Positions 1,660-59,275 of a stretch of DNA of 64,000 nt are shown piece after piece. The DNA is taken from the sequence record ON528737. One strand, 5' to 3'. This DNA comes from Shigella phage ESh27. The position numbers and the translations under genes were made by a program. The notes below the pieces were generated by a model, which saw only the letters and a list, made by a program, of their open reading frames with translations, was not told where the DNA came from and made no database searches. Every line of letters begins with the position of its first letter. The first letter of the stretch is position 1.

Positions 1660-1835
1660 CCCGTGAACAAGCTAATAAATTGATGGAACTTATCCGTAAC
1701 TTGCGTGAAGCCGATACTGATTTGAATGATGTAGCTCATTGCGAAGTAAATGGTGGCGACGAGTTCTATGAAAAACAGGTTGATGCTTGTCTGAATGATT
1801 TGGTGAATTTTGTTGAAACTTTAATTGGTGAATAA
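1656..1835 (+). CDS. hypothetical protein
   Basis: 59 aa; ATGA overlap with upstream ORF; read by eye. Confidence 0.4.
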   Translation: MTREQANKLMELIRNLREADTDLNDVAHCEVNGGDEFYEKQVDACLNDLVNFVETLIGE

Positions 1836-1836
1836 T

Positions 1837-2367
1837 ATGAAAACTGTAATTGAAACAACTGAGCTGTTTGGCGATTTATGTATCGAAAAACGTGGTTATG
1901 CTTACGTTCTGACACAAGAAGATGATGCTGTTACTATTCTTCCTATGGAACTGGACAAGATTTTGAAACTCAATCCACCAGGCCATGCATCTGTAATTAA
2001 CATTGACGAAGACCTTCAAGTTCGTTTTTATCACGGACTTTATAGTGGGGTTAATATCGAAACTGAAGACGAATGTTTTTCTATTAATAATTGGAAAACA
2101 TTCGTCACTAAGGTGAAAGAATTCATGGAATCTGAACCAGTCAAAAAGGCCAAACTTCAATGGTCTAAATGCCGTAATGCTTTTATTACAAATCTGGTCA
2201 ACCCTGACTCTACAACGGTCCTGAGCGTTAATCCTTCTTATGAAGACGGCGATGTCGTAGTTATTCGCCAAATTGATGACCTTCGTCAACATATCGTTAC
2301 ATTAGACAAAGATGAAGCAGTTGCTCTTAAAGCTTATCTTGATTCTATTATCCCGACTTTGAAATAA
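1837..2367 (+). CDS. hypothetical protein
   Basis: 176 aa; ATG at 1837 inside track ORF 1825..2367. Confidence 0.6.
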   Translation: MKTVIETTELFGDLCIEKRGYAYVLTQEDDAVTILPMELDKILKLNPPGHASVINIDEDLQVRFYHGLYSGVNIETEDECFSINNWKTFVTKVKEFMESEPVKKAKLQWSKCRNAFITNLVNPDSTTVLSVNPSYEDGDVVVIRQIDDLRQHIVTLDKDEAVALKAYLDSIIPTLK

Positions 2368-2376
2368 GGAATTATT

Positions 2377-2850
2377 ATGATTATCAATGAAAACTCTTGG
2401 CATTTTAAAATTTATGCAGCGTTCAATAGTACATGGAATCGTCCGAAAACGTTGTGTGCTTATTTTTGGAAAACGTTAATCCCGGTATTGGCTGTTTCAA
2501 TTATTGGATTTGCGATTTTAGCAGCAGTCATAATCATTGGCCATGAAATTTTAACTAAATTCTTTGTTTTTAGCAGTCTATGGACATTAGTTCCAGCCTC
2601 AATTGGTGTAGGCATTTTAATTGTAGCAGTCATGGCTCTTATTTCTGTTGGGTTGATAATTGGTCCGTCTTGGTTGTTAGACAAATATAACGACAGAAAA
2701 TATTATAAAGAAATTGAGCTCATTGCACAAAACCAAGAACGAATTAAAAATGGACTTGAGCCTATTGAACGTAAGAAATCATTAATAGGTGAATACCTTA
2801 AATCTCGTAAAGAAAAAGTCTGTCCTACTCTTGAATATAAGGCTAAATGA
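2377..2850 (+). CDS. hypothetical membrane protein
   Basis: 157 aa with several hydrophobic helices. Confidence 0.6.
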   Translation: MIINENSWHFKIYAAFNSTWNRPKTLCAYFWKTLIPVLAVSIIGFAILAAVIIIGHEILTKFFVFSSLWTLVPASIGVGILIVAVMALISVGLIIGPSWLLDKYNDRKYYKEIELIAQNQERIKNGLEPIERKKSLIGEYLKSRKEKVCPTLEYKAK

Positions 2851-3836
2851 TGAAAACAATTATGAAAGGCTACTTTGGTAGCCACCTTTATGGAACGTCT
2901 ACTCCTGAATCTGACGTCGATTTTAAAGAAATTTATGTCCCTCATGCTCGTGATATCTTGACCGGTAACGTTAAAGAACATATGAGCAAGAACACGAATA
3001 ACACATCTTCTAAGAACACAAAAGACGACGTGGACCATGAGTTGTATAGTCTCAAATATTTCTTTAAACTAGCTGCAGATGGTGAAACTGTCGCATTAGA
3101 TATGCTTCACACTCCACCAAGTCTAGTAGTTAAATCTGATTTGCCTGATGTATGGAAGTATATTCAAGACAACAGGTCTCGTTTCTATACCACTAACATG
3201 AAATCTTATTTAGGGTATGTCCGTAAGCAAGCTTCTAAATATGGCGTCAAGGGTTCTCGTCTGGCTGTTCTCCGCCAAGCCCTTAAACGTTCTAATGAAT
3301 GGGGACAATACTTTGATAATGGTGCAGTAATTCGTTTATCACATATGAAGAATGTTCTGCCTGTAGGTGAATTTGCTTCATGGGTTGAAACTGAAAACGA
3401 GAAAACAGGTAAGCAAACATTCTATAGTCTGTTGGACCGTAAATTCCAAGACACGTTAACCAATAAAGAGTTCAATGCCATCCTGGTTAAACTTGAAGAG
3501 AACTACGGTGAACGTGCTCGTAAGGCAGAAGCCAATGAAGGTATTGATTGGAAAGCATTGAGTCACGCATGCCGTGGTGGACTTCAGCTCTTAGAAATTT
3601 ACAAAACCGGCGACCTGGTTTACCCGCTTCAGGATGCTCCATTTATTCTCGATGTTAAGCTTGGTAAACATACGTTTAAAACCGTACAGGAATTCCTAGA
3701 AGATATCGTCGACCAAGTTGAACATGCCGCAGAACAAGCCGCTAAGAATGGTATGCAGCAAAAAGTAGATATGAGTTTCTGGGATGACTTCCTTGAGCAA
3801 GTCTACTTAGAAAACCACAATTCATACTATAAATGA
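2847..3836 (+). CDS. putative nucleotidyltransferase (Pol-beta superfamily fold)
   Basis: 329 aa; N-terminal GS-x9-SDVD motif (GSHLYGTSTPESDVDF) typical of minimal nucleotidyltransferases. Confidence 0.6.
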   Translation: MMKTIMKGYFGSHLYGTSTPESDVDFKEIYVPHARDILTGNVKEHMSKNTNNTSSKNTKDDVDHELYSLKYFFKLAADGETVALDMLHTPPSLVVKSDLPDVWKYIQDNRSRFYTTNMKSYLGYVRKQASKYGVKGSRLAVLRQALKRSNEWGQYFDNGAVIRLSHMKNVLPVGEFASWVETENEKTGKQTFYSLLDRKFQDTLTNKEFNAILVKLEENYGERARKAEANEGIDWKALSHACRGGLQLLEIYKTGDLVYPLQDAPFILDVKLGKHTFKTVQEFLEDIVDQVEHAAEQAAKNGMQQKVDMSFWDDFLEQVYLENHNSYYK

Positions 3837-3839
3837 TAA

Positions 3840-3857
3840 GGGCCTTCGGGCCCTTTA
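3840..3857 (+). terminator. rho-independent terminator (UUCG loop)
   Basis: gggccttcgggccc followed by TTT. Confidence 0.55.
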
Positions 3858-3884
3858 GGGGGTCAAAATATTTTTAAAAAGTAG

Positions 3885-3913
3885 TGTACATGCTTTTAGG
3901 ATATGTTATTATA
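3885..3913 (+). promoter_or_regulatory. early-type promoter
   Basis: TGTACA-N16-TATTAT followed by conserved agacctatc. Confidence 0.45.
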
Positions 3914-3940
3914 GACCTATCAAAACAAGAGGAAAACAAA

Positions 3941-4159
3941 ATGAAAACCAAAATGTTAGAAATGATTCGTGAAGCTGGTGATAAAGGTCTTATGGTTAAC
4001 ACTCGTGATGCAGACCAACGTCAAGCATTCGGTGAACTGAAAGCTAAAGGTCTAGTTAAAGCATCCTTGGGAATCGGTAACGCATTACGAGTCACTTTGA
4101 CTCCTGCTGGTAAAGCAATGTTCTTTCAACCTCTTACCAAAAAATCTCGTCGCAAATAA
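3941..4159 (+). CDS. hypothetical protein
   Basis: 72 aa; ATG after AAGAGGAAAA SD. Confidence 0.55.
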   Translation: MKTKMLEMIREAGDKGLMVNTRDADQRQAFGELKAKGLVKASLGIGNALRVTLTPAGKAMFFQPLTKKSRRK

Positions 4160-4161
4160 TT

Positions 4162-4192
4162 GTTTACTTTTGCTTTAAACATGTTATTATAG
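4162..4192 (+). promoter_or_regulatory. early-type promoter
   Basis: GTTTAC-N17-TATTAT-agacctatc. Confidence 0.5.
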
Positions 4193-4229
4193 ACCTATCG
4201 AAACGAAATGAGTAAATTTGGAGAATAAA

Positions 4230-5210
4230 ATGTTCAACGTTCAAATCAAAAAAGGTATCTATCGTAATAACGAAATCTCTGGTTCTTATGTTGCCACAAA
4301 GACATGGTTCCCGGCAAAGCTTAATCCTGAATGTTCCCACTTAGGTGACGGTAAAATTTTCGTTATGATTGATGGTTCTGAACGTGGAGTATGGGTCTTC
4401 AAATCAGACATCGTAATGGAAGGAGTTGAGACATCACCAGTTGCAGTTATTGAAAGCGCTGAAGATATGAAAACTCGTATCAACAAACGCTTTAAAGTAA
4501 TGAACATGATGACGAATGGCATTATCGATGGCAAAATTCGTTCACTCATTATTTCAGGTGCAGCAGGTATTGGTAAGACGTATTCTCTGGATAAAGCACT
4601 TAATAATGCTAATGATAATGGTTTCATCAAATACAAAAGCATTAATGGCAAAATCTCTGGTATTGGCCTTTACGAACAACTTTGGCTCAACCGTGATGCA
4701 GACAGCGTTCTCTTAATCGATGACGTTGACGTATTCTCAGATATGGATATCTTGAACCTTCTTAAAGCAGCATTAGATACTGGCGATAAACGCAAAGTTT
4801 GCTGGAGCACTGCATCATCTTATCTTGATGATAAGGGTATCGATAAAGAATTTGAGTTTGAAGGTACTATCGTTTTCATTACAAACGTTGATATCGATAA
4901 AGAGTTAGAACGCGGTTCGAAACTTGCTCCACACCTTCAAGCTTTAGTATCTCGTTCAGTGTATTTGGACCTTGGAGTACACTCTAATGAAGAGATTATG
5001 GTCCGAGTTGAAGATGTAATATTATCTACTGACATGATGCAGAAACGTGGTCTGACTGATGCTGAAACGTATAAAGCATTGTCCTGGATGAAGGCTAACA
5101 TATCTCGTCTTCGCAATGTATCATTACGTACGGCTCTTTATGTAGCAGATTTTATTTCAACTGATAAAGACGGTTGGGAGGAAATCTCCGAAGTAACTTT
5201 ACTGAAATAA
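4230..5210 (+). CDS. P-loop ATPase (AAA-like)
   Basis: 326 aa; Walker A GAAGIGKT and Walker B VLLIDDVD. Confidence 0.65.
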   Translation: MFNVQIKKGIYRNNEISGSYVATKTWFPAKLNPECSHLGDGKIFVMIDGSERGVWVFKSDIVMEGVETSPVAVIESAEDMKTRINKRFKVMNMMTNGIIDGKIRSLIISGAAGIGKTYSLDKALNNANDNGFIKYKSINGKISGIGLYEQLWLNRDADSVLLIDDVDVFSDMDILNLLKAALDTGDKRKVCWSTASSYLDDKGIDKEFEFEGTIVFITNVDIDKELERGSKLAPHLQALVSRSVYLDLGVHSNEEIMVRVEDVILSTDMMQKRGLTDAETYKALSWMKANISRLRNVSLRTALYVADFISTDKDGWEEISEVTLLK

Positions 5211-28097: not shown

Positions 28098-28733
28098 ATG
28101 AAAACTACTCCTATTACTATCGCTATTGACGCAATCATAAAACAAGCTTCTTCTTTGGCCGCTATGGCCAAAGTAATTAGTCAAAACCCTGCTCGTTATA
28201 ATGTTATTCTAGAAACACTTCGACGCCCTGGACTGAGTAATTATGAAAGTCGTGTAATTATTACAGGTGTTGGTAAGAACGCTAATATCGCAACTAAAGC
28301 TTCTGAGACATTTGCTTCACTCGGTATCCCAAGTATGTACTTGAACACCGGGCATTATTCTCACGGTGATGCAGGATTTATTGCGCCTAATGATGTGTTG
28401 ATTCATATTAGTCGTTCTGGTAAGACTGAAGAAATGATAGGTGTTGCTAAACATCTTCGTATGATTCGTCCTCAGGTTAAACAGATTCTGTTACATTGTA
28501 ACCCTGACATTCCACAAGAATACGAAGCTCTTTTTGATTATACGTTCTGTACCGGTATCGCGGTAGAAGTTGACGAGAACTCTTTAGCTCCGACTATGTC
28601 CACTACATTGTTGTTAGCGCTTATCGATACGTTTGCTATCAACCTTTCGTCTGAACGTGGATTTACCTCTAATGACTTCCTTAAGTTCCACCCTGGCGGT
28701 GCACTAGGTGCCATGTTACGAGGCGAACAATGA
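28098..28733 (+). CDS. SIS-domain sugar-phosphate isomerase (KdsD-like arabinose-5-phosphate isomerase)
   Basis: 211 aa; GVGKNANIATKASETFASLGIPS...HGDAG...ISRSGKTEE matches the KdsD/GutQ SIS-domain pattern; no CBS domain. Confidence 0.7.
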   Translation: MKTTPITIAIDAIIKQASSLAAMAKVISQNPARYNVILETLRRPGLSNYESRVIITGVGKNANIATKASETFASLGIPSMYLNTGHYSHGDAGFIAPNDVLIHISRSGKTEEMIGVAKHLRMIRPQVKQILLHCNPDIPQEYEALFDYTFCTGIAVEVDENSLAPTMSTTLLLALIDTFAINLSSERGFTSNDFLKFHPGGALGAMLRGEQ

Positions 28734-28873
28734 AAGCAATAACAATAGGACTTTTACTATTGATGCTTGTCATGACTATCTACTGGAGCTTAACGGCTCC
28801 GGTAATGATTCCAACACTTGTAATTGGATGGATTATGATTGGTCTACAGGCAAAGTATGAATGCTTTAACTAG
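28730..28873 (+). CDS. hypothetical small membrane protein
   Basis: 47 aa, two hydrophobic segments; ATGA overlap with SIS gene stop; read by eye. Confidence 0.35.
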   Translation: MKAITIGLLLLMLVMTIYWSLTAPVMIPTLVIGWIMIGLQAKYECFN

Positions 28874-28914
28874 AATAGTGTACAATACACCTACTTACCA
28901 ATGAGGACTTCAAC

Positions 28915-30600
28915 ATGAAAAAAGCTGTTATTCTTGGTGCTGGATTGGCAACTCGTTTATATCCAATTACTCACCATATTCCAAAAGTTCTTGTGAACTA
29001 TAAACAAGACACTATTCTGAGCAATTTGTATACAATTTATTCTGACCTTGGCGCAGATGAAATTATTGTAGTAGTTCATTCAAAATTTGCTGAAACCGTT
29101 CGAGCTTATTGTGAGCAAGAAGGGTTCAATGTGACTATTCGTACAGTTGATGAAGCGTATGGTTCTGCTTATGCTCTTGCTAAATTACACAAAGATTTAG
29201 ACGGCCATAACGTAGTTGTTAACTGGTGCGATATTATTCCTGATTTTGGTTCATGGTCTTGGAATGTTAACGCAATCTATGTTAAGGGTGATGAATGTCG
29301 ATATAATTTCGATGGTGAAAATATCACTAACGTAGGTTCAACAGGCGGTAATGTTGTAGGAATTTATCAGTTCAAAGACTGGGAATTCTATATGGGTTCT
29401 ACTGATGAGGAAATTCATGAATACTGCAAAGGACGTGATTTCGTAGAATTCCTTTACAGCAGCGCATTCAATAAATCAGAGCTTATGAATCTAATTGATT
29501 TAGGTGATATGCCTAAACTTGAAAAAGCTCATGAAGTTCGTGAACTTAATCGTAGTTTTAATGCAGTTGAAATTGGTGAAGAAACTGTAACTAAATTCGC
29601 ATTAACTGAACAAGGTCGAGCTCTTCAAAAAGATGAGATTTCATGGTATTTGAAAGTGAAATCAGATTCAGTCCCTCAGTTAGTTTCTGTTAATGAAAAT
29701 AACTTTGAAATGGAACGCATTAAAGGTAAGCCAGCATTTGAATATATTAAATCCAAATCAAGTCTTGCTCGTCCACAAATTGTTGATGCAATTTTAGATG
29801 CACTGAAATTCAGCACAGACATTTATTTTGTAAGTCCTGAAACTGTTCGTCGTGATTTCACTAAAGAATTCTATACGAAAGTTATTGATCGTTGTGAAAG
29901 CATTCAACCATTGATTGATTCATTTGGTAAAATCACACATGTGAACTACACTAAGATTGGACGTCTGAAGCCAATGCTGAAACAAGCTTTAGAACATCTT
30001 ATTCGTTATCATAACCGTTCTCAGGGACAGTACTCTGTTATTCATGGTGACCCAAACTTCAGTAATACTATGATTACCGATAACGGCGAAGTCAAGTTTA
30101 TCGACCCTCGTGGATATTTTGGTGAAACCAAGATTTACGGGCCAAAATTGTATGATGAAGCTAAAGTGCTTTATGCTGTTTCAGGTTATGATGAATTCAA
30201 CGCTAATCCGACCTGGGGCCAGTTTATTATTGATGAAACAACTTGTAATGTGACTATTAACATCAATCCATTAGTTTACAAATATGGAAAGATGAGTTCG
30301 TTTAACGAGTATCATCATTTGGCAGTGGCAATTATCTGGATTGCATTAGGTGGTTATTTCAAGAATAATCCACTTAAAGCGGTAGCCGCATATTATAAAG
30401 GTATGGAACTTCTAACTAAGCAATTACGTAACATGGGCCGTGTACTTCAAGATGGCTCTATTAGTTATGACGTAGCAGAACCTGTAACGGCTACTCTGAT
30501 TACAAAAAATCCTGGTAAATGGGTACTAACTGATAAAGAAACTGGTGTTTCCTATCGTCCAATCGGTGGCGATATCACTCATCAATGGGAACGAATCTAA
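28915..30600 (+). CDS. bifunctional sugar-1-phosphate nucleotidyltransferase / sugar kinase (putative)
   Basis: 561 aa; N-terminal GxGxR nucleotidyltransferase motif (AVILGAGLATRLYP...PKVLV); C-terminal APH/choline-kinase-like HGDPNFSN...FIDPRG. Confidence 0.7.
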   Translation: MKKAVILGAGLATRLYPITHHIPKVLVNYKQDTILSNLYTIYSDLGADEIIVVVHSKFAETVRAYCEQEGFNVTIRTVDEAYGSAYALAKLHKDLDGHNVVVNWCDIIPDFGSWSWNVNAIYVKGDECRYNFDGENITNVGSTGGNVVGIYQFKDWEFYMGSTDEEIHEYCKGRDFVEFLYSSAFNKSELMNLIDLGDMPKLEKAHEVRELNRSFNAVEIGEETVTKFALTEQGRALQKDEISWYLKVKSDSVPQLVSVNENNFEMERIKGKPAFEYIKSKSSLARPQIVDAILDALKFSTDIYFVSPETVRRDFTKEFYTKVIDRCESIQPLIDSFGKITHVNYTKIGRLKPMLKQALEHLIRYHNRSQGQYSVIHGDPNFSNTMITDNGEVKFIDPRGYFGETKIYGPKLYDEAKVLYAVSGYDEFNANPTWGQFIIDETTCNVTININPLVYKYGKMSSFNEYHHLAVAIIWIALGGYFKNNPLKAVAAYYKGMELLTKQLRNMGRVLQDGSISYDVAEPVTATLITKNPGKWVLTDKETGVSYRPIGGDITHQWERI

Positions 30601-30986
30601 TGCACCGTGTAGAAAACATGCTTAATCTTTGTTTTGATGTCGATGATTGTATAACAGAGTGGAATAACAATCGTGATTATGTGAACTTCAAACCGGACGT
30701 CGAAATGGTGTCCGCCATTAATGCCCTGTATGATGCAGGGCACACCATAACGCTTTACACGGCTCGTGGTATGAAGTCTGTAGGACCTGGTCGTATAGCA
30801 ATTGACATTCTCCCGAGTCTGATTCAGAACTTGGAAAACATTGGTTTGAAGTACCATAATTTGCTAACACATAAACCAGTATATGATTGGATTATCGACG
30901 ACAAAGCTATGCGTCCTGACGAATTCAAAGCTCTTATGAATAAAGGCGAATTCGAAACATTTAAATCATATAAACCGAATCTATAA
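30600..30986 (+). CDS. HAD-like phosphatase (putative)
   Basis: 128 aa; N-terminal FDVDDCIT resembles HAD motif I (imperfect); TAATG overlap with upstream gene. Confidence 0.5.
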   Translation: MHRVENMLNLCFDVDDCITEWNNNRDYVNFKPDVEMVSAINALYDAGHTITLYTARGMKSVGPGRIAIDILPSLIQNLENIGLKYHNLLTHKPVYDWIIDDKAMRPDEFKALMNKGEFETFKSYKPNL

Positions 30987-31043
30987 TAATTTAAGTAAGA
31001 CCTGCAAAAACCATCGCATCAATTAACGTGAGATGCAAAAAAA

Positions 31044-32204
31044 ATGAATACTTTTAAAATCGGAACGAATTTTGATTTAGCTCTTCTTGATAAAATCGTA
31101 GAGCTCAATAAAACCTATCCTAATAGCTTGATAAACGAAGTATATGGCTCTACAAGAGAAATGGCTTTTGTAGCAGCCAGACCTGATTTTAGGCTTCCTG
31201 ACGTCGACAAAAAGATGTTAGAAGACTATGTTAAACGTTGTAACGAATTAGGTATTTGCTTTAACTATACACTCAACACGATAAATCCTGGTTCAAAAAG
31301 AGAACTAGTTGAGTGGAAGAAGAAAGCTATTCAGGATTATGTTCAGTATCTTTGGTCAATAGGCGTATGGCGTATTACTATCGCTAACCCTGTTGTTATG
31401 GAAATTGTTCGTGAAGTCAATAAAGATATTGAGATTGAAGTTTCAACAATTCTACATGTTGATGCCGTAACTCAAATCAAATACTTACACGACCAATATA
31501 ACATCAAAAAGGTCTGCTGTGGAATTCATAAGAACCGTTCAGTTTCTTTCCTGAAGCGTGCAGCAGAGTTTTGCAATAAGAACAATATAATATTTGAAGT
31601 TCTTGTAAATGAGTTCTGTTCTAATGCTGGTAAAGGGTATACAACACATTGTAGCTATCGTGACTCTTGCTATATTTTCCATAGTACTGATGTTACAGCT
31701 GATGATGCTAAATCCTTAAATGGATATCCAATGCAACACTGCATTAAAGCTCGTGATACAGACCCATTTAACTGGCTGAGAACTCGTTTTGTTCGTCCTC
31801 AAGATTTGAAACTTTATAATGATATTGGTATCACTCAATTCAAAGTTTCAGGACGTACAGGTAGCACAGACTACATTTTGAAAGTTCTTGAAGCATACGC
31901 TTCTGAAAAGTTTGAAGGTAATTTGTTAGAACTGTGGAAGCCTTTAGAGACTATTTTCACTCTTGAAAATGAGACTGAGTTTTCACATACAGTAAATATT
32001 GAAACCTCTTTGTTAGATGGCTTTTTAGAAAAAAGGTGGTTCAGACATCCGGATTTTGATTGTGCTAATGAAATCTGTGGGTCAACGTGTACATATTGTG
32101 AAAGATATTATAAACGTCAATTATCTAAAAATGGGTTAGCAGAAAACTCTATATCTATTATTGATATAACTAACTCTGATGACGCTTTGAGGTACCCGGA
32201 ATGA
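31044..32204 (+). CDS. hypothetical protein with Cys-rich C-terminus
   Basis: 386 aa; C-terminal CANEICGSTCTYCERY plus earlier NEFCSNAG...HCSYRDSCY; family not assigned. Confidence 0.6.
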   Translation: MNTFKIGTNFDLALLDKIVELNKTYPNSLINEVYGSTREMAFVAARPDFRLPDVDKKMLEDYVKRCNELGICFNYTLNTINPGSKRELVEWKKKAIQDYVQYLWSIGVWRITIANPVVMEIVREVNKDIEIEVSTILHVDAVTQIKYLHDQYNIKKVCCGIHKNRSVSFLKRAAEFCNKNNIIFEVLVNEFCSNAGKGYTTHCSYRDSCYIFHSTDVTADDAKSLNGYPMQHCIKARDTDPFNWLRTRFVRPQDLKLYNDIGITQFKVSGRTGSTDYILKVLEAYASEKFEGNLLELWKPLETIFTLENETEFSHTVNIETSLLDGFLEKRWFRHPDFDCANEICGSTCTYCERYYKRQLSKNGLAENSISIIDITNSDDALRYPE

Positions 32205-32440
32205 TTTCTAGAAAAACTTTTAACCACCAACTTAATGAAGAGATTTTGACTATAAAACTGAACACTAACGAACAAATTCTTAAAAAGGCCCTGATGGGCC
32301 TGTTTGAAACTAAAGCGGCTAAAGTGATTAAAGAACCTGTTCAACTAGAATATTATGCTGATGCATTTCTTCATAGTGTTCTTGGAAGTATCGATGCTGA
32401 AGCTTTACGTTATATCAACATTGTCAAGAAATTCAAATAA
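32201..32440 (+). CDS. hypothetical protein
   Basis: 79 aa; ATGA overlap. Confidence 0.45.
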   Translation: MISRKTFNHQLNEEILTIKLNTNEQILKKALMGLFETKAAKVIKEPVQLEYYADAFLHSVLGSIDAEALRYINIVKKFK

Positions 32441-32470
32441 GCTTTACGAATTGAGTATATAATAAATTGT
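32440..32470 (+). promoter_or_regulatory. middle-type promoter candidate
   Basis: aGCTTTAc followed by TATATAAT upstream of gene 42. Confidence 0.3.
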
Positions 32471-32482
32471 ATTGAGGTAAAC

Positions 32483-33199
32483 ATGGGAAAACATAACACA
32501 ATGAAATATATCAAAGCCGCAGATTTTCAAACCGCATTTAAAGCAGTCAATCGTGAAATTTTAGAAAACCCGGAATTCGTAACTGATTCTCGTATTGGAC
32601 GTTGTAATGAAATTGGGTCTATGACCGTAGTTGTTGACACTCCATCATCATTCAAAATGACCGACCCACGTATTAATCGCATCTCTTATGAATATGCCGA
32701 AGACTTCTGGAAGTTTATGATTTCTGGTGGTACCAACGCAGAAGAAGCGTTTAAGGCATATCCTAATGTCGCTAAATTTATTTCTAAACCAAAATCAGAT
32801 GTTTTGCCGGCGAACTTCAACACTTTCTATGGTCCTCGCATTGCGGCCCAATTACCAGCTCTTCTCAAAGAACTTAAAGAGAAGCCTAACTCTCGAAGAG
32901 TTGTGTTCCAAATTCTAGAAAGTTCTGATCAGGCTTTGCTTGATTCAGACGAAACACTTGAATATCCATGTACTGACTCAGTGACTTATTATATTCGTGA
33001 TGGTAAGCTTTATACACACTGTCATATGCGTTCTCAGAACTGTGCTGTTGTTATGCAGTTGGATTTTTATCTCCAAGGAAAATTACTTCATTATATCGCT
33101 AACGAATGTGGTGTAGAAGTTGGTGATTATACTCATACCATGGTAAGTGCCCATGTGTTTGAACGTGATTTTGATTATGTTAAAGGATTCCTTGACTAA
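32483..33199 (+). CDS. 42: dCMP hydroxymethylase gp42 (thymidylate-synthase fold)
   Basis: 238 aa; active-site region PCTDSVTYYIRDGKLYTHCHMRSQNCAVVMQLDF parallels T4 gp42 / thymidylate synthase. Confidence 0.8.
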   Translation: MGKHNTMKYIKAADFQTAFKAVNREILENPEFVTDSRIGRCNEIGSMTVVVDTPSSFKMTDPRINRISYEYAEDFWKFMISGGTNAEEAFKAYPNVAKFISKPKSDVLPANFNTFYGPRIAAQLPALLKELKEKPNSRRVVFQILESSDQALLDSDETLEYPCTDSVTYYIRDGKLYTHCHMRSQNCAVVMQLDFYLQGKLLHYIANECGVEVGDYTHTMVSAHVFERDFDYVKGFLD

Positions 33200-34098
33200 T
33201 GGCTATTTTCCGCGTACCAATCTTGAGTATGCGGTCTTATGAAACTGGACAGTATGCTATCCTTAAGGATGGCAACTTCCAACTTCATTTGCACCGTGCT
33301 AATCCAGGCGATGTGATTACATATCCACGTAATGCATCTGATATTAAAGAATGCGAACGTCTTTTCCCGGAATTTAAGTTTGTTCCATTATGGTATAAAG
33401 ATAACGCGTATAACACTCGTAAATATTTCTGGTCTGAAAACGAATTTGTTGTTGATTCATTAATTGCTTATTATGATTGTGATTTTCTAATCACAGATAT
33501 CACTGGATATGACGGCGCTTTTGATGTAGAATTCAATTTCAATATCACTGCAGACCCTAATAAACCACGTTTTTATATTGACGAATTCTTAAAAACCGAC
33601 ATGTTGTCGGTTAATCGTTCACTTCAAACTACTGTGTTGAATGAACGTCAAAAAGAAGTGCTGGTTAACGCAGGTGCAGACGATAATAAGATTATCGTAA
33701 CGCAGAAAGTTATACGTCCTTCCATCATGCAGCGTCTTGTAGGTGATTTGGCTCCTATTCATGTAGATGGTATTTTTCATCCATTTCGAATTAGTGATCC
33801 GTGTTATCATTTTGAACAAGTGGTTGAATGTGCAATTCAATTAGGTCAACCGCTTTATATAACCGATCCAAATAATAGCTTCGACAGAAATAAGTATCCT
33901 GAAGAAGCGCTGATTCGAATTTTTAAACCAACTAAAACTGAGTACTACCAAATTCTTAAAGGACGTCCGAAGATTCAATATTTCGAAAATCCTGAAGAAG
34001 TATTCCATCCAGGTCTTGGTGAGTTCATCTACTTTAATGCTTTAATTTCTTCGCCGTATAATATACCTAAATACGAAGATGTCGTAATCGAGGAATAA
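33199..34098 (+). CDS. hypothetical protein occupying the beta-glucosyltransferase position
   Basis: 299 aa between gene 42 and uvsX; no recognisable similarity to T4 beta-gt. Confidence 0.6.
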   Translation: MAIFRVPILSMRSYETGQYAILKDGNFQLHLHRANPGDVITYPRNASDIKECERLFPEFKFVPLWYKDNAYNTRKYFWSENEFVVDSLIAYYDCDFLITDITGYDGAFDVEFNFNITADPNKPRFYIDEFLKTDMLSVNRSLQTTVLNERQKEVLVNAGADDNKIIVTQKVIRPSIMQRLVGDLAPIHVDGIFHPFRISDPCYHFEQVVECAIQLGQPLYITDPNNSFDRNKYPEEALIRIFKPTKTEYYQILKGRPKIQYFENPEEVFHPGLGEFIYFNALISSPYNIPKYEDVVIEE

Positions 34099-34099
34099 A

Positions 34100-34648
34100 A
34101 TGGCTAAAATTATTTTAGTAGATGGCCCGGATAATGCCGGTAAAACAACTTTCATTAATGACATAATGGAAATTAGTGAAAGATATGTAAAGATTGATTT
34201 CCCTAAACGAACAGTTGATGGACGTTTCGATGTTAAGTCTCGAAATGAAGTTGGTTGTTTCGAAACGATGTTGAATTATTTAGACCCTACTAAGATTTAT
34301 CTGTTAGACCGTGGATATATTAGTAACTGGGTTTATGGACGTATTCGACAAGATGCGGACTCGGTTCTTGACGTTTATGAACAGGATTATGTTCGTCTTT
34401 GTCAAAACCATGATGTGTTCACAATTATTTTAACACGTAACGAAATGACTGAAAGTTTTGAAGACGACCTTATTACTTTGTCTTCATTCGGTTTTAATAC
34501 AGTCATTTCACATTTTGAAGAGTTTGCAATTCATAACAAAATCCAAACGTATCAATTACTTAATCATGATGGTGCTAACAAAGTTATAGGATTTAATGCA
34601 AGCGAACGTAATGATTTGATTACAGAAATTATCAAATGGGCTCGTTAA
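34100..34648 (+). CDS. P-loop NMP-kinase-like protein (thymidylate-kinase fold)
   Basis: 182 aa; Walker A GPDNAGKTT and DRGY motif like TMPK DR(Y/H). Confidence 0.55.
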   Translation: MAKIILVDGPDNAGKTTFINDIMEISERYVKIDFPKRTVDGRFDVKSRNEVGCFETMLNYLDPTKIYLLDRGYISNWVYGRIRQDADSVLDVYEQDYVRLCQNHDVFTIILTRNEMTESFEDDLITLSSFGFNTVISHFEEFAIHNKIQTYQLLNHDGANKVIGFNASERNDLITEIIKWAR

Positions 34649-52850: not shown

Positions 52851-54668
52851 ATGATTAAAAATGAAATTAAGGTACTGTCAGATGTAGAACATATTAAGAA
52901 ACGTAGTGGTATGTATATTGGTTCTTCTGCTAAAGAAGCACATGAACGTTTTTTGTTTGGTAAATATCAACAAGTTGAATATGTTCCTGGTCTGGTTAAA
53001 TTAATCGATGAGATTATTGACAACTCGGTTGATGAAGCTATTCGTACATCATTTAAGTTTGCAAATAAAATTGATGTGCAAATTAAAAATAATCAAGTTT
53101 CGGTGGAAGATAACGGACGTGGTATTCCTCAAGGTTTAGTTACCGACCAAACGGGTGAACAAATTCCTGGGCCTGTTGCAGCCTGGACTATTCCAAAAGC
53201 CGGTGGTAACTTTGGTGATGACTCTGAACGTAAGACTGGTGGTATGAACGGCGTCGGGAGTAGTTTAACTAATATCTTCTCTACGTTGTTTACAGGCATA
53301 ACGTCAGATGGCGAAAATGAAATCACTGTTAACTGTTCAAACGGGATGGAAAACAAATCATGGTCTTCTAAGAAATCTAAAGGTAAAGGCACTAAAGTAA
53401 TCTTCACTCCTGATTTCACTTCATTTGAAGAGCATAATTTATCTCAAATTTATTTAGATATTACTTTAGACCGACTTCAAACATTGGCAGTCGTTTATCC
53501 TGATATCAAGTTCACATTTAACGGTAAAAAGGTTGATGGTAATTTTAAACGATTTGCTAAACAATTTGGCGAAGATAATATCATTCAAGAAAATGATAAA
53601 GTCTCTATAGCATTCACAACATCACCAGATGGCTTCCGTCATTTAACTTATGTGAATAACATCCATACTAAAAATGGTGGACATCATGTTGAATGTGTAA
53701 TGGACGATATCTGCGAACATCTTTTGCCAGGTATTAAAAAGAAATATAAGGGTATTGAAGTCACTAAAGCTCGTGTTAAAGAATGCCTCACAATGTTGAT
53801 GTTTATTAGAGACATGAGTAACATGCGTTTTGATTCTCAGACTAAAGAACGTTTAACGTCAACATATGGTGATATTCGTAATCATATCCAATTAGATGCT
53901 AAGAAAATTGCTCAGGCACTTCTTAAAAACGAAGCCTTGATTATGCCTATTGTTGAAGCAGCATTAGCTCGTAAATTGGCAGCAGAAAAGGCTGCAGAAA
54001 CTAAAGCAGCTAAAAAGGCCACTAAAGCTAAGGTTCATAAGCATATTAAAGCTAACCAATGCGGTAAAGATGCAGATACGACATTGTTTTTAACAGAAGG
54101 TGATTCGGCAATTGGATATCTCATTGATGTTCGTGACCGTGAACTACATGGCGGATTCCCATTACGTGGTAAGGTGATGAATAGCTGGGGTATGTCATAT
54201 GCTGATATGATGAAGAACAAAGAGCTCTTTGATATCTGTGCTATCACAGGTCTTATTCTTGGTGAAAAAGCAGAGAATACGAACTATCGTAATATTGCAA
54301 TTATGACCGATGCCGATCATGACGGTCTTGGAAGTATCTATCCGGCTTTGCTTGCTTTCTTTAGTAATTGGCCTGAATTGTTTGAACAAGGACGTATTCG
54401 CTTTGTTAAAACGCCTGTAATTATTGCACAAATTGGCAAAACACAAAAATGGTTTTATACTGTAGCTGAGTATGAAGAAGCTAAAGATACACTGCCTAAG
54501 CATAGTATTCGATACATCAAGGGATTAGGCTCCCTTGAAAAGTCAGAATATCGTGAAATGATTCAGAACCCTGTGTACGACGTAGTTAAACTTCCTGAAA
54601 ATTGGAAAGAACTCTTTGAAATGTTGATGGGTGATGATTCAGAACTTCGTAAAGAATGGATGTCCTAA
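52851..54668 (+). CDS. 39: DNA topoisomerase II large subunit gp39 (GyrB-like ATPase plus TOPRIM; 39 and 60 fused)
   Basis: 605 aa; GHKL ATPase motifs (IDNSVDEA, GRGIP, GGMNGVGSS) and TOPRIM (LTEGDSA, DADHDG) in one ORF. Confidence 0.9.
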   Translation: MIKNEIKVLSDVEHIKKRSGMYIGSSAKEAHERFLFGKYQQVEYVPGLVKLIDEIIDNSVDEAIRTSFKFANKIDVQIKNNQVSVEDNGRGIPQGLVTDQTGEQIPGPVAAWTIPKAGGNFGDDSERKTGGMNGVGSSLTNIFSTLFTGITSDGENEITVNCSNGMENKSWSSKKSKGKGTKVIFTPDFTSFEEHNLSQIYLDITLDRLQTLAVVYPDIKFTFNGKKVDGNFKRFAKQFGEDNIIQENDKVSIAFTTSPDGFRHLTYVNNIHTKNGGHHVECVMDDICEHLLPGIKKKYKGIEVTKARVKECLTMLMFIRDMSNMRFDSQTKERLTSTYGDIRNHIQLDAKKIAQALLKNEALIMPIVEAALARKLAAEKAAETKAAKKATKAKVHKHIKANQCGKDADTTLFLTEGDSAIGYLIDVRDRELHGGFPLRGKVMNSWGMSYADMMKNKELFDICAITGLILGEKAENTNYRNIAIMTDADHDGLGSIYPALLAFFSNWPELFEQGRIRFVKTPVIIAQIGKTQKWFYTVAEYEEAKDTLPKHSIRYIKGLGSLEKSEYREMIQNPVYDVVKLPENWKELFEMLMGDDSELRKEWMS

Positions 54669-54690
54669 GCTCCTTCGGGAGCTTCATTTT
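54669..54690 (+). terminator. rho-independent terminator (UUCG loop)
   Basis: gctccttcgggagc followed by T-rich tract. Confidence 0.55.
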
Positions 54691-54710
54691 AATTTTAATA
54701 AGGCTTAATT

Positions 54711-55811
54711 ATGAAAGTTATGTTTATCCCATCTCGCGCAGTCCCGTTTAACCCAGAACGTGTACAAGGTGGTCTTGAAGCAGTACATTTAAATGTGTTG
54801 AAATATCTTGTGTCCATCGGTGCTGATATTGATTATATCGGCTTTGATAATGACACGTTTGGTGACTGGAAAGTTACACACCATCCTGTTGGTCATCTGA
54901 CTAAATTCAGTCTAGGTATGAGTTATACTATGGCTCGTAAGATTGTTGAACTAGCCGGCATTAATGAGTACGATTTCGTTGTTACAATGGAACCGACCAA
55001 ACTAACCGTTCAGGCAATTAAAGACGCAGGTCTCTCTAAAGTTCATAAGAATTTTATGGCAACACCATTTGAACCGGTATCTCGTGGCATTGTTCAAATT
55101 TGGGACCAGACTATTCAAATTCATAAGAATGGTGGTAAGAGTTATGCTCCTACTAAAGCCTTCCGTGAATTTGAACGCAAATATTGTTATATGACTTCAG
55201 GACTGACTGACAAAATTGATTATGATTATTGGCGAGCAAATCCGTTGTTTGAAGCCGAAGATTATCCGGTTATTTGTTTGACTGAAAAACCGGAAGTTCT
55301 CCCAGCAACTGATTTGATTATTAGTGCTCAACGTTATGACACTAAGATGCGTCGTACTGATGTTGCTCTTGAAGCGATTAAAGCATTAGGCGAAAATGGT
55401 ATTGGTTATTGTCCAAGCAAATGGGCACCACCAGCTAAGTATCCTGTTATTATTGATGCTCCACACAGTGAAATCATGGAACGTCTTAAAACAGCTAAAG
55501 CACTTATTAATACGTGTCCTGACACGGGTACGGTAGAGAATAGTTCTATTGAAGCCATCTCTAAAGGTGTCCCTGTAATTCAGTTAGTTTTTAAGGATTA
55601 TCCGCATGCGACATTCGAATATGACCCAGATACTGTGCGTGTAGAAATTGATTCCTCTACTCCTAAGAAAGAAGTAGTTGCGCTTTACACAAAAGCTGTA
55701 TTAGAATTCACTGACACGTACGAAGCTCGAGTTAAACGTGCTGAAGCAGTATGGAAGAAGTATAACCGAGATGCAGTTGTTGCAATGTGGGATAAAATCT
55801 TCACAGCGTAA
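54711..55811 (+). CDS. GT-B fold glycosyltransferase (candidate DNA glycosyl/arabinosyl-transferase)
   Basis: 366 aa; N-terminal MKVMFIPSRAVPFNPERVQGGLEAVHLNVLKYL and C-terminal ENSSIEAISKGVPVI resemble GT4-type GT-B motifs; sits between gene 39 and rIIA. Confidence 0.65.
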   Translation: MKVMFIPSRAVPFNPERVQGGLEAVHLNVLKYLVSIGADIDYIGFDNDTFGDWKVTHHPVGHLTKFSLGMSYTMARKIVELAGINEYDFVVTMEPTKLTVQAIKDAGLSKVHKNFMATPFEPVSRGIVQIWDQTIQIHKNGGKSYAPTKAFREFERKYCYMTSGLTDKIDYDYWRANPLFEAEDYPVICLTEKPEVLPATDLIISAQRYDTKMRRTDVALEAIKALGENGIGYCPSKWAPPAKYPVIIDAPHSEIMERLKTAKALINTCPDTGTVENSSIEAISKGVPVIQLVFKDYPHATFEYDPDTVRVEIDSSTPKKEVVALYTKAVLEFTDTYEARVKRAEAVWKKYNRDAVVAMWDKIFTA

Positions 55812-55827
55812 ATCCTGAATCGCCTGA

Positions 55828-55878
55828 GGCACTATTACACATAAGATGATAGATTATATGGTCTTTAGTAATAGTGCC
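55828..55878 (+). repeat. inverted repeat (11-bp arms, 29-nt loop)
   Basis: ggcactattac ... gtaatagtgcc, perfect; loop contains gatagattatatgg; lies between the glycosyltransferase and the next ORF. Confidence 0.6.
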
Positions 55879-55903
55879 CTAGGAATCTACTGAAGAGAAT
55901 ATT

Positions 55904-56104
55904 ATGAGAACATATAACGTGGACTTGGAACTTTTTGATAAAGCAGTGCTCCGGGAATTCCGGCTTATCCAAAGATTTTTTGATATCGAGTCAGCAGAGT
56001 TCTTTAAAGAACGCTTTAAAGAAATTCGATATAAAATACAAACCGATACAGCTACTAAAGAAGAACTTCTTGAAGTAGCAGAAATTTTTAAACGTAACTT
56101 GTGA
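55904..56104 (+). CDS. hypothetical protein (rIIA.1 position)
   Basis: 66 aa immediately upstream of rIIA. Confidence 0.45.
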   Translation: MRTYNVDLELFDKAVLREFRLIQRFFDIESAEFFKERFKEIRYKIQTDTATKEELLEVAEIFKRNL

Positions 56105-56116
56105 TGAGAGAAAAAT

Positions 56117-58330
56117 ATGATTATTGAAACGGCTAAAGAAACGATTATTGGTTCAGGCGGTAAGAGCACAGCATTCACTATTCAAGGCAATAGCAAAGTT
56201 TATAAGATTTTGTCTAATGACCTTTATACAAACAAAGAATTGGCTTGTGTACGTGAATTAATTACAAACTGTATCGATGGACAAATTCTTAATGGTTGCA
56301 CTGATAAGTTTATTGTTCAGGCTCCAGGTCGTTTAGACCCACGCTTTGTAGTTCGAGACTTTGGTCCTGGTATGAGCGATTTCACTATTCGAGGTAATGA
56401 CGAAGAGCCAGGAATCTATAACTCATATTTTGCTTCAACTAAAACATCGAGCAACGATTTCATTGGTGGATTCGGGCTCGGCTCTAAAGCTCCGCTAGCA
56501 TATACCGATACGTTTAACCTTACGTCTTATCACAACGGTGAAGTTCGTGGTTACGTAATCTACCAAGATGACACAGGTCCACAAATTAAGCCGACCTTTG
56601 TAGATAAAATGGGTCCTGATGACCGTACGGGTGTAGAAGTAGTTGTACCGGTTAACCCGGAAGATTTTGAAAAATTCGCATCCGAAATTGCATATGTTAT
56701 GCGTCCTCTAGGTGATATTGCAGAAGTTCGTGGTGTTAAAGATATTAAATACTTCCCAGAATTTGATGATGTATATTTGGCCAAGGAAGCTCCATGGGGT
56801 GAACGTGGTAACATCATGGCTGTTTACGGTGGTATTGTATATCCAATCGGAAGTGTTATTAAAGAACAAACATGGATGATGACGCGATGCACTACAGCTT
56901 ATATTAAATTCCCTATGGGTGAACTAGATGTAGCCCCGTCTCGTGAAGCATTGTCATTTGATAAACGTACAGTAGCAAATATCCATAAACGTGTTGCAGA
57001 AATCGATGCTAAATTGTTCGCTGAAGATTCTAAGAAATGGATTGATTGTAAATACCCACGTCATGTGTTCCGTGAAATTGATTCTCTTGGTTATACCGCT
57101 CGTAAATACATGGAAAAGGCCGGGTCTAATATTGAATCACTGAAATACTCTAAAGAACAACTAACTTATTCTGAGTTGTACAAACGTTTTAAAATGGGAC
57201 CTGAGTGGTGTAATCTTGGTGTCGTATACGATATCGTTGAATCCCCTCGTCTTCGTCGTATTCGTGAAAGTGGTAGCTCATCATCAACCATTTCAATTAA
57301 CAGCCTGATTGGCATTAACATTAAAAACGTTGAAATTGTTATTGACGACGTTAAGGGACGCGTTCCATTAATGCGAGCTCTTAATTCAATTGAAATGTCT
57401 AAAGACGAGGTTAAATTATCCGGTAAAGTTCCACGCGGTTTTGGTAAAAGCGTACTATTCGTTGACCCTACAGACGAAGATGCAATGAAACTTCTGGAAC
57501 GCCTTAAAGTTATCTTTGATGGCGATAGCATTAACATGTACAAGACTTCAGAGCTTTTACAAATCGTTAAGCCATGGATTGAAGTCAGGAAACGGACTAA
57601 TGAGCCTCGTCCTAAATCCCCAAGTGCTCATCGATTCTTTAAGAATGAAAACGATGTTTGGGTATCAGAAGACCTCTTTATTCCGGCAAGTGAAGCAGAT
57701 GAAATCCAAGGTTATGCTATAGTTCGTAATCGTTCTAATGCTGAATGTCTTGACGCAGATAAAGGTTGGTTGAACTATGACTCCAATTTCTTGACCCGTA
57801 TTGCTGATTTGTCAGGTATTAAAGAGTTCACTGTAGTTCGTCCACAGATTGCTAAGAAAGTTCGTAAACTTGGTGAAGTAGAATGTTTGTTTGAAAAATC
57901 AATTAATGACTATATTATGCTAATCGATAAAGTAGATTATGATGAGTATGTATCACCAAGTCGTAGAGCACAGCCTTATTTGAATCATATTACTCGTAAC
58001 GAAGAGCTTAATTTCCTTAGTAAGTATTTTAGCTCTAAGAACAAAGAAATCAGTAAAGACTTTGCAAAACTCTCAACAGTAAATAATCGTTGGGGATGGA
58101 ATCGATTCGCAGGTGCTACTAATACAGACCTGAACAGGAAGTTAGAATTGTGTGCTAAAATTTTCGATAAGCTTAAAGATAATGCTTACGATAATGATGA
58201 TAAAATGGTTATTGAATTCGAAACCAATTATCATATTGTGTCAGAATACATGGGACGACGTGGTACTCTTTCTAAAGAACAAGTCGCTCAAATCGTTAAA
58301 TTCATGAAGGCCGTGGAAGCGGCCAAATAA
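56117..58330 (+). CDS. rIIA: rIIA protein
   Basis: 737 aa; N-terminus MIIETAKETIIGSGGKS...LYTNKELACVRELITNCID matches remembered T4 rIIA. Confidence 0.9.
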   Translation: MIIETAKETIIGSGGKSTAFTIQGNSKVYKILSNDLYTNKELACVRELITNCIDGQILNGCTDKFIVQAPGRLDPRFVVRDFGPGMSDFTIRGNDEEPGIYNSYFASTKTSSNDFIGGFGLGSKAPLAYTDTFNLTSYHNGEVRGYVIYQDDTGPQIKPTFVDKMGPDDRTGVEVVVPVNPEDFEKFASEIAYVMRPLGDIAEVRGVKDIKYFPEFDDVYLAKEAPWGERGNIMAVYGGIVYPIGSVIKEQTWMMTRCTTAYIKFPMGELDVAPSREALSFDKRTVANIHKRVAEIDAKLFAEDSKKWIDCKYPRHVFREIDSLGYTARKYMEKAGSNIESLKYSKEQLTYSELYKRFKMGPEWCNLGVVYDIVESPRLRRIRESGSSSSTISINSLIGINIKNVEIVIDDVKGRVPLMRALNSIEMSKDEVKLSGKVPRGFGKSVLFVDPTDEDAMKLLERLKVIFDGDSINMYKTSELLQIVKPWIEVRKRTNEPRPKSPSAHRFFKNENDVWVSEDLFIPASEADEIQGYAIVRNRSNAECLDADKGWLNYDSNFLTRIADLSGIKEFTVVRPQIAKKVRKLGEVECLFEKSINDYIMLIDKVDYDEYVSPSRRAQPYLNHITRNEELNFLSKYFSSKNKEISKDFAKLSTVNNRWGWNRFAGATNTDLNRKLELCAKIFDKLKDNAYDNDDKMVIEFETNYHIVSEYMGRRGTLSKEQVAQIVKFMKAVEAAK

Positions 58331-58339
58331 GGAAACATT

Positions 58340-59275
58340 ATGTACAATATCAAATGCTTGTCCCAAGAAGAACAGTTAGAAGCTTACGGCCTGGTTGAAT
58401 CAGGCAAATGGACTCGTAAAGAAATTGCCGATTACTTCGACATTTCAACAGATACTCTTCGTAAGATTGTTAAGAATTTTAAAGCTGAAGAGAAAGCAGC
58501 TGAATTTGAAGACGAAGAACAGATCCCAGAAAATGATGAACCTATTATCGGCGGACATCGTCCAGAAATCGTATGGAACGCGTCATCTAAATTTATTTCA
58601 ATCATTGAAGGACGCGTAGCATACAATGCGACCCCATCAAGTCATGCAAATTTTGAAGAAATTAAAACTAATCTGGTCGCAGGAAACCTTAGTAAAGCTG
58701 TTGAACTTATTAACGTCAAGAAAGCTATTACTAAGTTTGTTGACGGTAATGTTACTATTGAAGGTGGTAGTTTATTTTATCAAGGTATAGAAATTCGTTC
58801 AGGTCTGGTTAATCGTATTATTGATTCCATGGAAAAAGGCGAAGACTTTAAATTCTATCTGCCGTTCCTTGAAAACCTGTTAGAAAACCCGAGCGAAAAA
58901 GCTGTACAACGTTTATTCGACTTCTTGGTTGCAAATGATATTGAAATCACTGAAGATGGGCATTTCTACGCGTGGAAAGTAGTTCGTAAAGATTATTTAG
59001 ATTGCTATAGCGGTACATTTGATAACTCCCCAGGTAAAGTTGTTTCAATGCCTCGTACTCGTGTTAACGATGATGATACACAAACCTGCTCCCGTGGTCT
59101 ACATGTTTGCGCTAAATCATATATTCGTTACTTTGGTTCTAGCTCAGATAAAGTTGTTAAGGTTAAAGTTCATCCGCGCGATGTTGTATCTATCCCGGTT
59201 GACTACGGTGATGCTAAGATGCGTACTTGTCGTTATGAAGTAATTTCAGACGTTACTGAATTATTTGCAGAATAA
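58340..59275 (+). CDS. rIIB: rIIB protein
   Basis: 311 aa; MYNIKCLSQ...PRTRVNDDDTQTCSRGLHVC...KVKVHPRDVVSIP matches remembered T4 rIIB. Confidence 0.9.
   Translation: MYNIKCLSQEEQLEAYGLVESGKWTRKEIADYFDISTDTLRKIVKNFKAEEKAAEFEDEEQIPENDEPIIGGHRPEIVWNASSKFISIIEGRVAYNATPSSHANFEEIKTNLVAGNLSKAVELINVKKAITKFVDGNVTIEGGSLFYQGIEIRSGLVNRIIDSMEKGEDFKFYLPFLENLLENPSEKAVQRLFDFLVANDIEITEDGHFYAWKVVRKDYLDCYSGTFDNSPGKVVSMPRTRVNDDDTQTCSRGLHVCAKSYIRYFGSSSDKVVKVKVHPRDVVSIPVDYGDAKMRTCRYEVISDVTELFAE

Follow-up and report, generated by a model that had tools for sequence, protein, structure and literature searches.

A GT-B glycosyltransferase of Shigella phage ESh27 is the ortholog of RB69 gp3 and most likely a chain-extending DNA arabinosyltransferase

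The gene between gene 39 and rIIA of Shigella phage ESh27 encodes a GT-B glycosyltransferase of 366 amino acids, and is the Mosigvirus ortholog of RB69 ORF003c. Its product is most likely a chain extender rather than the base-proximal transferase of an arabinosylating system. The window, the whole stretch of 64,000 nucleotides that was analyzed (sequence record ON528737), is from an RB69-like phage (Mosigvirus), and all coordinates below refer to it unless another genome is named. A first-pass annotation had proposed this gene as the transferase that puts the NDP-sugar of a biosynthetic island in the same genome onto hmC. The GT-B assignment, the connection to a DNA-modification system and the use of the island's NDP-sugar have stood, whereas hmC as the acceptor was wrong and transfer onto the base was probably wrong. 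The gene is already known, with a published structure and a published proposal for its role, and the first-pass annotation correctly rediscovered it.

The open reading frame begins on the plus strand with an ATG at 54711 and its stop codon ends at 55811, exactly as annotated in the first pass. A Shine-Dalgarno-like AAGG (54700–54703) is located 7 nt 5′ of the ATG. Both motifs that had been described, a GT4-like N-terminus and a C-terminal E...EA...G.PVI, were found on direct reading. The N-terminal segment, MKVMFIP...GGLEA, includes a glycine loop, the GT4-like 'GG' motif, with the codons for G20-G21-L22-E23 at 54768–54779. The C-terminal acidic motif, TGTVE276NSSIE281AISKGVPVI, extends from T272 to I290 (codons at 55524–55580). 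In an alignment of 11 homologs G20, G21, L22, E276 and P288 were invariant, and E281 was nearly so. The spacing of E276 and E281 is E-X4-E, a variant of the E-X7-E of GT4 enzymes; the E-X7-E itself is absent, the position eight before E281 being occupied by G273.

The protein has 98.4% identity to RB69 ORF003c/gp3 (NP_861693.1). A sequence search of the PDB returned 9iqz and 9ir0 (E 1.6e-248 for 9iqz, about 98% identity), which were released on 2025-07-16 under the titles 'phage HY126 glycosyltransferase' for 9IQZ and the same '... with UDP' for 9IR0; the association with UDP is known here only from the latter title. We take He et al. 2026 (Nat Chem Biol) to be the likely source of these structures. 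The structure predicted with alignment-based AlphaFold (pLDDT 90) has two Rossmann-like domains with an interdomain cleft, and superposes on the HY126 crystal structure with a TM of 0.96, so that the GT4-like GT-B fold expected from the sequence was borne out. RB69 gp3 and the HY126 glycosyltransferase are also 366 aa long, are encoded between gene 39 and rIIA.1, and differ from the window protein by a handful of substitutions; they are practically the same protein. The same location of the gene in Mosigvirus, between gene 39 and rIIA.1/rIIA, has been described elsewhere (PMC13390438). In PHROGs the protein matched phrog_8302, 'unknown function', at 1e-221 over residues 1–366. It belongs with PHROG 8302 and the RB69 gp3/HY126 proteins by full-length homology, by location and by co-occurrence with an island for 5-hydroxycytosine (5hoC) and UDP-arabinose. 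RB69 ORF003c was proposed as a DNA arabinosyltransferase with a predicted GT-B fold in 2018 (Thomas et al., 2018; PMC6024577), and the first-pass reading was much the same. Later work re-assigned the base to 5hoC, gave a crystal structure of the protein and refined its role to that of a second transferase.

No Pfam-A family matched the 366-aa protein at E ≤ 10, and its distant relatives gave sub-threshold Pfam scores (GT4-conflict, 0.0028; Glyco_trans_1_4, 0.013). The family is tiny. Word-indexed homolog searches yielded 5 and later 10 clusters, and the small size was confirmed by an exhaustive HMMER scan of 1.84 billion proteins, in which there were 11 representatives at E ≤ 1e-3.

The island (28098–34648) fills the region between gene 43 and uvsX, in which T4 has imm, 42 and b-gt. 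It begins on the plus strand with genes for a SIS-domain arabinose-5-P isomerase (28098–28733; Pfam SIS, 4.2e-10), a bifunctional NTP-transferase/kinase fusion (28915–30600; Pfam NTP_transferase, 7.9e-10, with weak kinase matches) and a small HAD-like phosphatase (30585–30986). These are orthologs of RB69 gp55, gp52:53 and gp51, to which, together with HY126 AfhE/AfhF, the supply of UDP-D-arabinofuranose has been ascribed (PMC13326640). Farther along the same strand are a thymidylate-synthase homolog (32483–33199; Pfam Thymidylat_synt, 2.3e-15; RB69 gp48 ortholog) and a transferase of 299 aa (33199–34098; RB69 gp46:47 ortholog), the start of which overlaps the stop of the synthase gene. From the assignment of its ortholog (PMC13326640), the 299-aa protein is the putative first arabinosyltransferase, base-proximal and alpha. 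The last gene of the island, also on the plus strand, encodes a P-loop nucleotide kinase of 182 aa (34100–34648), the ortholog of RB69 gp45 according to the RB69p045 annotation. A gene for a peptidase-U32-like protein of 386 aa (31044–32204; Pfam, 7e-11; RB69 gp50 ortholog) stands in the middle of the island and has no equivalent in the annotated stretch of the island of Acinetobacter phage DLP3; in the literature this protein is listed only as a 'sugar or heterocycle reductase'.

The synthase has RSQNC where ThyA has RSCDV and T4 gp42 has RSNDV; an Asn thus corresponds to D169 of E. coli ThyA, and an Asp corresponds to N177. In alignment it is almost identical to RB69 gp48, which makes 5-hydroxy-dCMP, and Asn at the D169 position is a signature of such flavin-dependent enzymes (PMC13326640). 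The signature and the near-identity to gp48 together indicate that this genome makes 5hoC, not hmC; on the reading of its synthase, the acceptor base is 5hoC, and the hmC of the first-pass annotation has to be given up. The modified cytosine of RB69 was determined by MS/MS and NMR to be beta-D-Araf-(1→3)-alpha-D-Araf-O5-deoxycytidine, in which an ether bond joins the sugar directly to C5 and the methylene group is lacking, the base being 5-hydroxycytosine (Lee et al., NAR 2026; PMC13326640). An independent paper also found the earlier assignment of hmC to RB69 to be erroneous (PMC13390438). The combination of a dCMP hydroxymethylase with an hmC acceptor, as for T4-type DNA glucosyltransferases, does not hold for this phage. 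The genome had been said to have no recognizable alpha-gt or beta-gt, and indeed neither T4 protein had a tblastn match below E = 2 in the whole window. BLASTP against the 366-aa protein gave E ≥ 5 in every pairing, and between 47 and 55, where T4 has a-gt, the window has only small ORFs.

The distribution of the two transferases among phages bears on which sugar each one adds. With tblastn, the 299-aa transferase turned up in 348 phage records spanning many genera, including Mosigvirus, Dhakavirus JS98, Shewanella phage Thanatos, Acinetobacter phages and phages of Klebsiella, Enterobacter, Edwardsiella, Yersinia, Pectobacterium, Erwinia, Serratia, Proteus and Providencia. Phages with no 366-aa homolog are among these records, and in all the lineages of arabinosylating phages that were found the 299-aa gene adjoins that of the synthase. 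For the 366-aa family tblastn gave 211 records, with one place per record in Mosigvirus and two in Acinetobacter phages. RB69 carries two arabinoses and DLP3 three (PMC13326640), and two have been published for NP and Bas46/47. On tblastn matches at E ≤ 1e-3 and chemistry published for only a few phages, the copy number of the 366-aa family tracks the number of arabinoses, one copy corresponding to di- and two to tri-arabinosylated DNA. One 'Tegunavirus' record, outside Mosigvirus and the Acinetobacter phages, carries a 366-aa homolog of less than 60% identity. The idea that the 299-aa and 366-aa transferases are paralogs was rejected, there being no detectable similarity between them.

The enzymes of DLP3 provide the closest biochemical parallel. 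Full-length identity of the 366-aa protein is 43% to DLP3 gp77 and 40% to gp76, both of which belong to the same phage-restricted family. With UDP-Araf as donor, gp76 and gp77 together put one more arabinose on RB69 DNA; they have no activity on plain 5hoC DNA and are active only when combined (PMC13326640). The two DLP3 paralogs are encoded inside the island, beside the kinase gene, and jointly add the third sugar (beta-1,5), whereas the single copy in the window, at a distance of 20 kb from the island, has been assigned the second (beta-1,3). RB69 gp46:47 has been named 'arabinosyltransferase 1' and gp3 'beta-arabinosyltransferase 2', the role of gp3 being listed as proposed, not confirmed (PMC13326640). 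The distribution of the 299-aa transferase, the match to published chemistry, the homology to gp76 and gp77 and the ties of the family to the island in other phages all argue that the 366-aa enzyme is the extender.

Two metagenomic contigs carry further members of the family. In one from an uncultured phage (L008, 450–3019; Logan SRR26937416), a member of 41% identity shares 4 nt with the start of a gene for a 299-aa-type transferase (48% identity), which is followed by a nucleotide kinase gene (48% identity), a third arrangement of the same parts. In a T4-like contig (L007, 3040–4224; JGI 3300045321) a more distant member of 394 aa and 34% identity follows genes for a DNA ligase and a phage DsbA homolog, another insertion context.

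If the modified cytosine received its first sugar from the 366-aa enzyme, as was hypothesized in 2018 for RB69 ORF003c and again in the first-pass annotation, it would be hard to account for the arabinosylating phages of many genera that lack this protein and keep the 299-aa transferase beside the synthase. Copy number follows the count of extra arabinoses, and the DLP3 homologs are inactive on 5hoC DNA and extend DNA that is already arabinosylated (PMC13326640). Against the form of this reading in which the base is hmC there is also the identity of the base, 5hoC. We regard direct transfer to the base as unlikely. A different target altogether, for instance a protein, a small molecule or a glycan of the host envelope, might be suggested by the nearest folds, which act on lipids, thiols, LPS and sugars. 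This is very improbable, given that every phage genus carrying the 366-aa family also has the arabinosylation island, that the family is essentially restricted to phages in the HMMER scan described above, and that its homologs gp76 and gp77 act on DNA (PMC13326640).

Since DLP3 gp76 and gp77, paralogous relatives of the window protein, are active only together (PMC13326640), gp3 might need a partner too. In the strongest form of this proposal the 366-aa protein would be inactive alone and would work only in partnership with a second transferase, perhaps the 299-aa enzyme, either by binding DNA or glycan or by contributing to a shared active site. The translational coupling of a family member to a 299-aa-type transferase in the metagenomic contig L008 is in its favor. 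In Mosigvirus, however, the gene is a unit apart, about 20 kb from the island, and has its own ribosome-binding site. The motif for donor binding and the acidic motif do not vary (E281 nearly so), and a homolog was crystallized with UDP, according to the title of 9IR0, both as in a complete enzyme. An obligate partnership therefore seems improbable to us, and chain extension by the 366-aa enzyme remains the preferred reading.

A scheme that is probably correct as a whole can be put together as follows. Deoxycytidine would be replaced by 5-hydroxydeoxycytidine, made as the mononucleotide by the flavin-dependent thymidylate-synthase homolog of the island, and UDP-D-arabinofuranose would be made by the island from ribulose-5-P. 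The 299-aa transferase would put the first alpha-D-Araf on the 5-hydroxyl of cytosine. The 366-aa enzyme, a UDP-sugar-dependent GT-B protein, would act on phage DNA after replication, adding to the first sugar a second, beta-(1→3)-linked D-Araf to give the di-arabinosylated cytosine typical of Mosigvirus. The longer glycan may then give wider protection from host nucleases and glycosylases. What we infer is the sugar, rather than the base, as the acceptor, the linkage that results and the advantage that the phage draws from it. The second D-Araf transfer, onto arabinosyl-5hoC DNA, by gp3 is a proposal supported indirectly by the phyletic pattern and by the activity of gp76 and gp77.

Among DNA hypermodifications, arabinosylated 5-hydroxycytosine was resolved recently; it is described as shielding T4-like phages from restriction enzymes, type I CRISPR-Cas and the DNA glycosylase Brig1, and the number of arabinoses may alter which defenses are evaded. 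A deletion of Aat in Bas46 was reportedly made by Mahler et al. in 2025, in Cell Host Microbe. Correct naming of both transferases should help to annotate some 150 Mosigvirus genomes, in which this gene is still a 'hypothetical protein'. Glycan length should also be predictable from sequence, with mono-arabinosylation expected from no copy of the 366-aa family, di- from one and tri- from two.

GT4 enzymes retain the anomeric configuration of the donor sugar, and the nearest structural neighbors of the 366-aa enzyme are retaining GT4 enzymes. In published fold searches both arabinosyltransferases, of 299 and 366 aa, are GT4-like. Since an alpha sugar is followed by a beta sugar and both are presumed to come from one donor, UDP-D-Araf, one of the two transferases must invert. 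If the donor is indeed shared, a retaining mechanism alone does not explain two arabinoses of opposite anomeric configuration on GT4-like enzymes. We suggest, tentatively, that the 366-aa enzyme could be a beta-D-arabinofuranosyltransferase that inverts on a scaffold shared, among its nearest relatives, by retaining enzymes only, and could represent a new, phage-restricted GT family for glycan-on-DNA acceptors, a standing to which the lack of a Pfam GT match and the E-X4-E motif point. For the same two reasons the protein is described here as GT4-like in fold, not as a member of GT4. This stereochemical mechanism and the standing as a separate family are the angle that remains novel.

Among known systems, the bacterial retaining GT4 enzymes BshA, MshA, PimA, WaaG and sucrose-phosphate synthase are only 10–15% identical to the window enzyme; they have E-X7-E and retain, whereas the window enzyme, with E-X4-E, no Pfam GT4 match at E ≤ 10 and a proposed beta product, may not. 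The T4 alpha-glucosyltransferase (GT72) and beta-glucosyltransferase (GT63) have no sequence similarity to it. They use glucose and 5hmC, in contrast to D-Araf and 5hoC, and the acceptor of the window enzyme is probably a sugar hydroxyl rather than a substituent of the base. The gentiobiosyl-hmC enzyme of T2 and T6 (beta-alpha-GT/TAGT) is likewise a second transferase that converts a DNA-linked monosaccharide to a disaccharide (PMC6024577; PMC13216743). Its sugar and base are different, and it is likened to the window enzyme by function alone, with no claim of common membership.

The gene order on the plus strand is gene 39 (52851–54668), the transferase, rIIA.1 (55904–56104), rIIA (56117–58330) and rIIB (58340–59275). 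The order in T4 is 39-mobA-60.1-60-rIIA.1, and the first-pass annotation had placed the transferase in the gene 60/mobA slot. That placement was mistaken, as the equivalent of gene 60 lies inside an unsplit gp39 and the insertion is 3′ of it. Gene 39, which encodes the topoisomerase II large subunit and forms the left boundary of the insertion, is a single open reading frame of 605 aa equivalent to T4 39+60. The C-terminal part of its product is 91% identical in amino acids to T4 gp60 (tblastx, with the match ending at 54665), which marks a phage whose gene 39 is not split into 39/60 as in T4, and which has neither inserted mobA nor translational bypass in gene 60.

Homology to T4 and to JS98 breaks off at 54668 and resumes at about 55886–55904, where the rIIA.1 homolog forms the right boundary. 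The same interval is only about 50 bp in T4, and in JS98 it consists of 588 unrelated, unannotated bases. From the break and the resumption, the transferase gene with an upstream hairpin and a downstream repeat is, as judged by sequence comparison, a distinct insertion of 1.2 kb into a variable slot, in agreement with the inserted module that had been postulated. The upstream hairpin (54667–54684, plus strand; ΔG −10.5 kcal/mol, z −3.65) has a UUCG loop and a 7-bp stem, is followed by a T-rich tract and is terminator-like. It is right at the end of gene 39 and 26 nt 5′ of the transferase start codon, and no promoter-like site was found between it and the ATG. Bracketing by UUCG terminators, as had been claimed, holds on this side only. 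No second UUCG hairpin was found downstream of the transferase gene, where there is instead an imperfect inverted repeat 3′ of the stop codon (55823–55883, plus strand; ΔG −28.5 kcal/mol, z −4.54), with arms of 16 nt (55823–55838 and 55868–55883), a spacer of 29 nt and no T-run after it. This very stable hairpin falls within the segment that is missing from T4 and JS98; an RNA processing or stability element and an insertion scar are candidate roles for it.

The slot between 39 and rIIA.1 appears to be a hotspot for differing insertions. In JS98 (Dhakavirus, NC_010105.1) it covers 2437–3024 and contains two small ATG-initiated frames and a GC-rich hairpin, GGGCCGCAAGGCCC, none of them related to the transferase. 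The JS98 gap as a decayed copy of the transferase was considered and rejected, since blastn and tblastx showed no similarity between it and 54669–55885. In Shigella phage JK45 the match to 54000–56500 of the window spans about 3.0 kb (1831–4834) in two pieces, compared with 2.5 kb here. Three hypothetical proteins are annotated in that region, and the sequence suggests that the JK45 slot has an extra insertion of about 500 bp.
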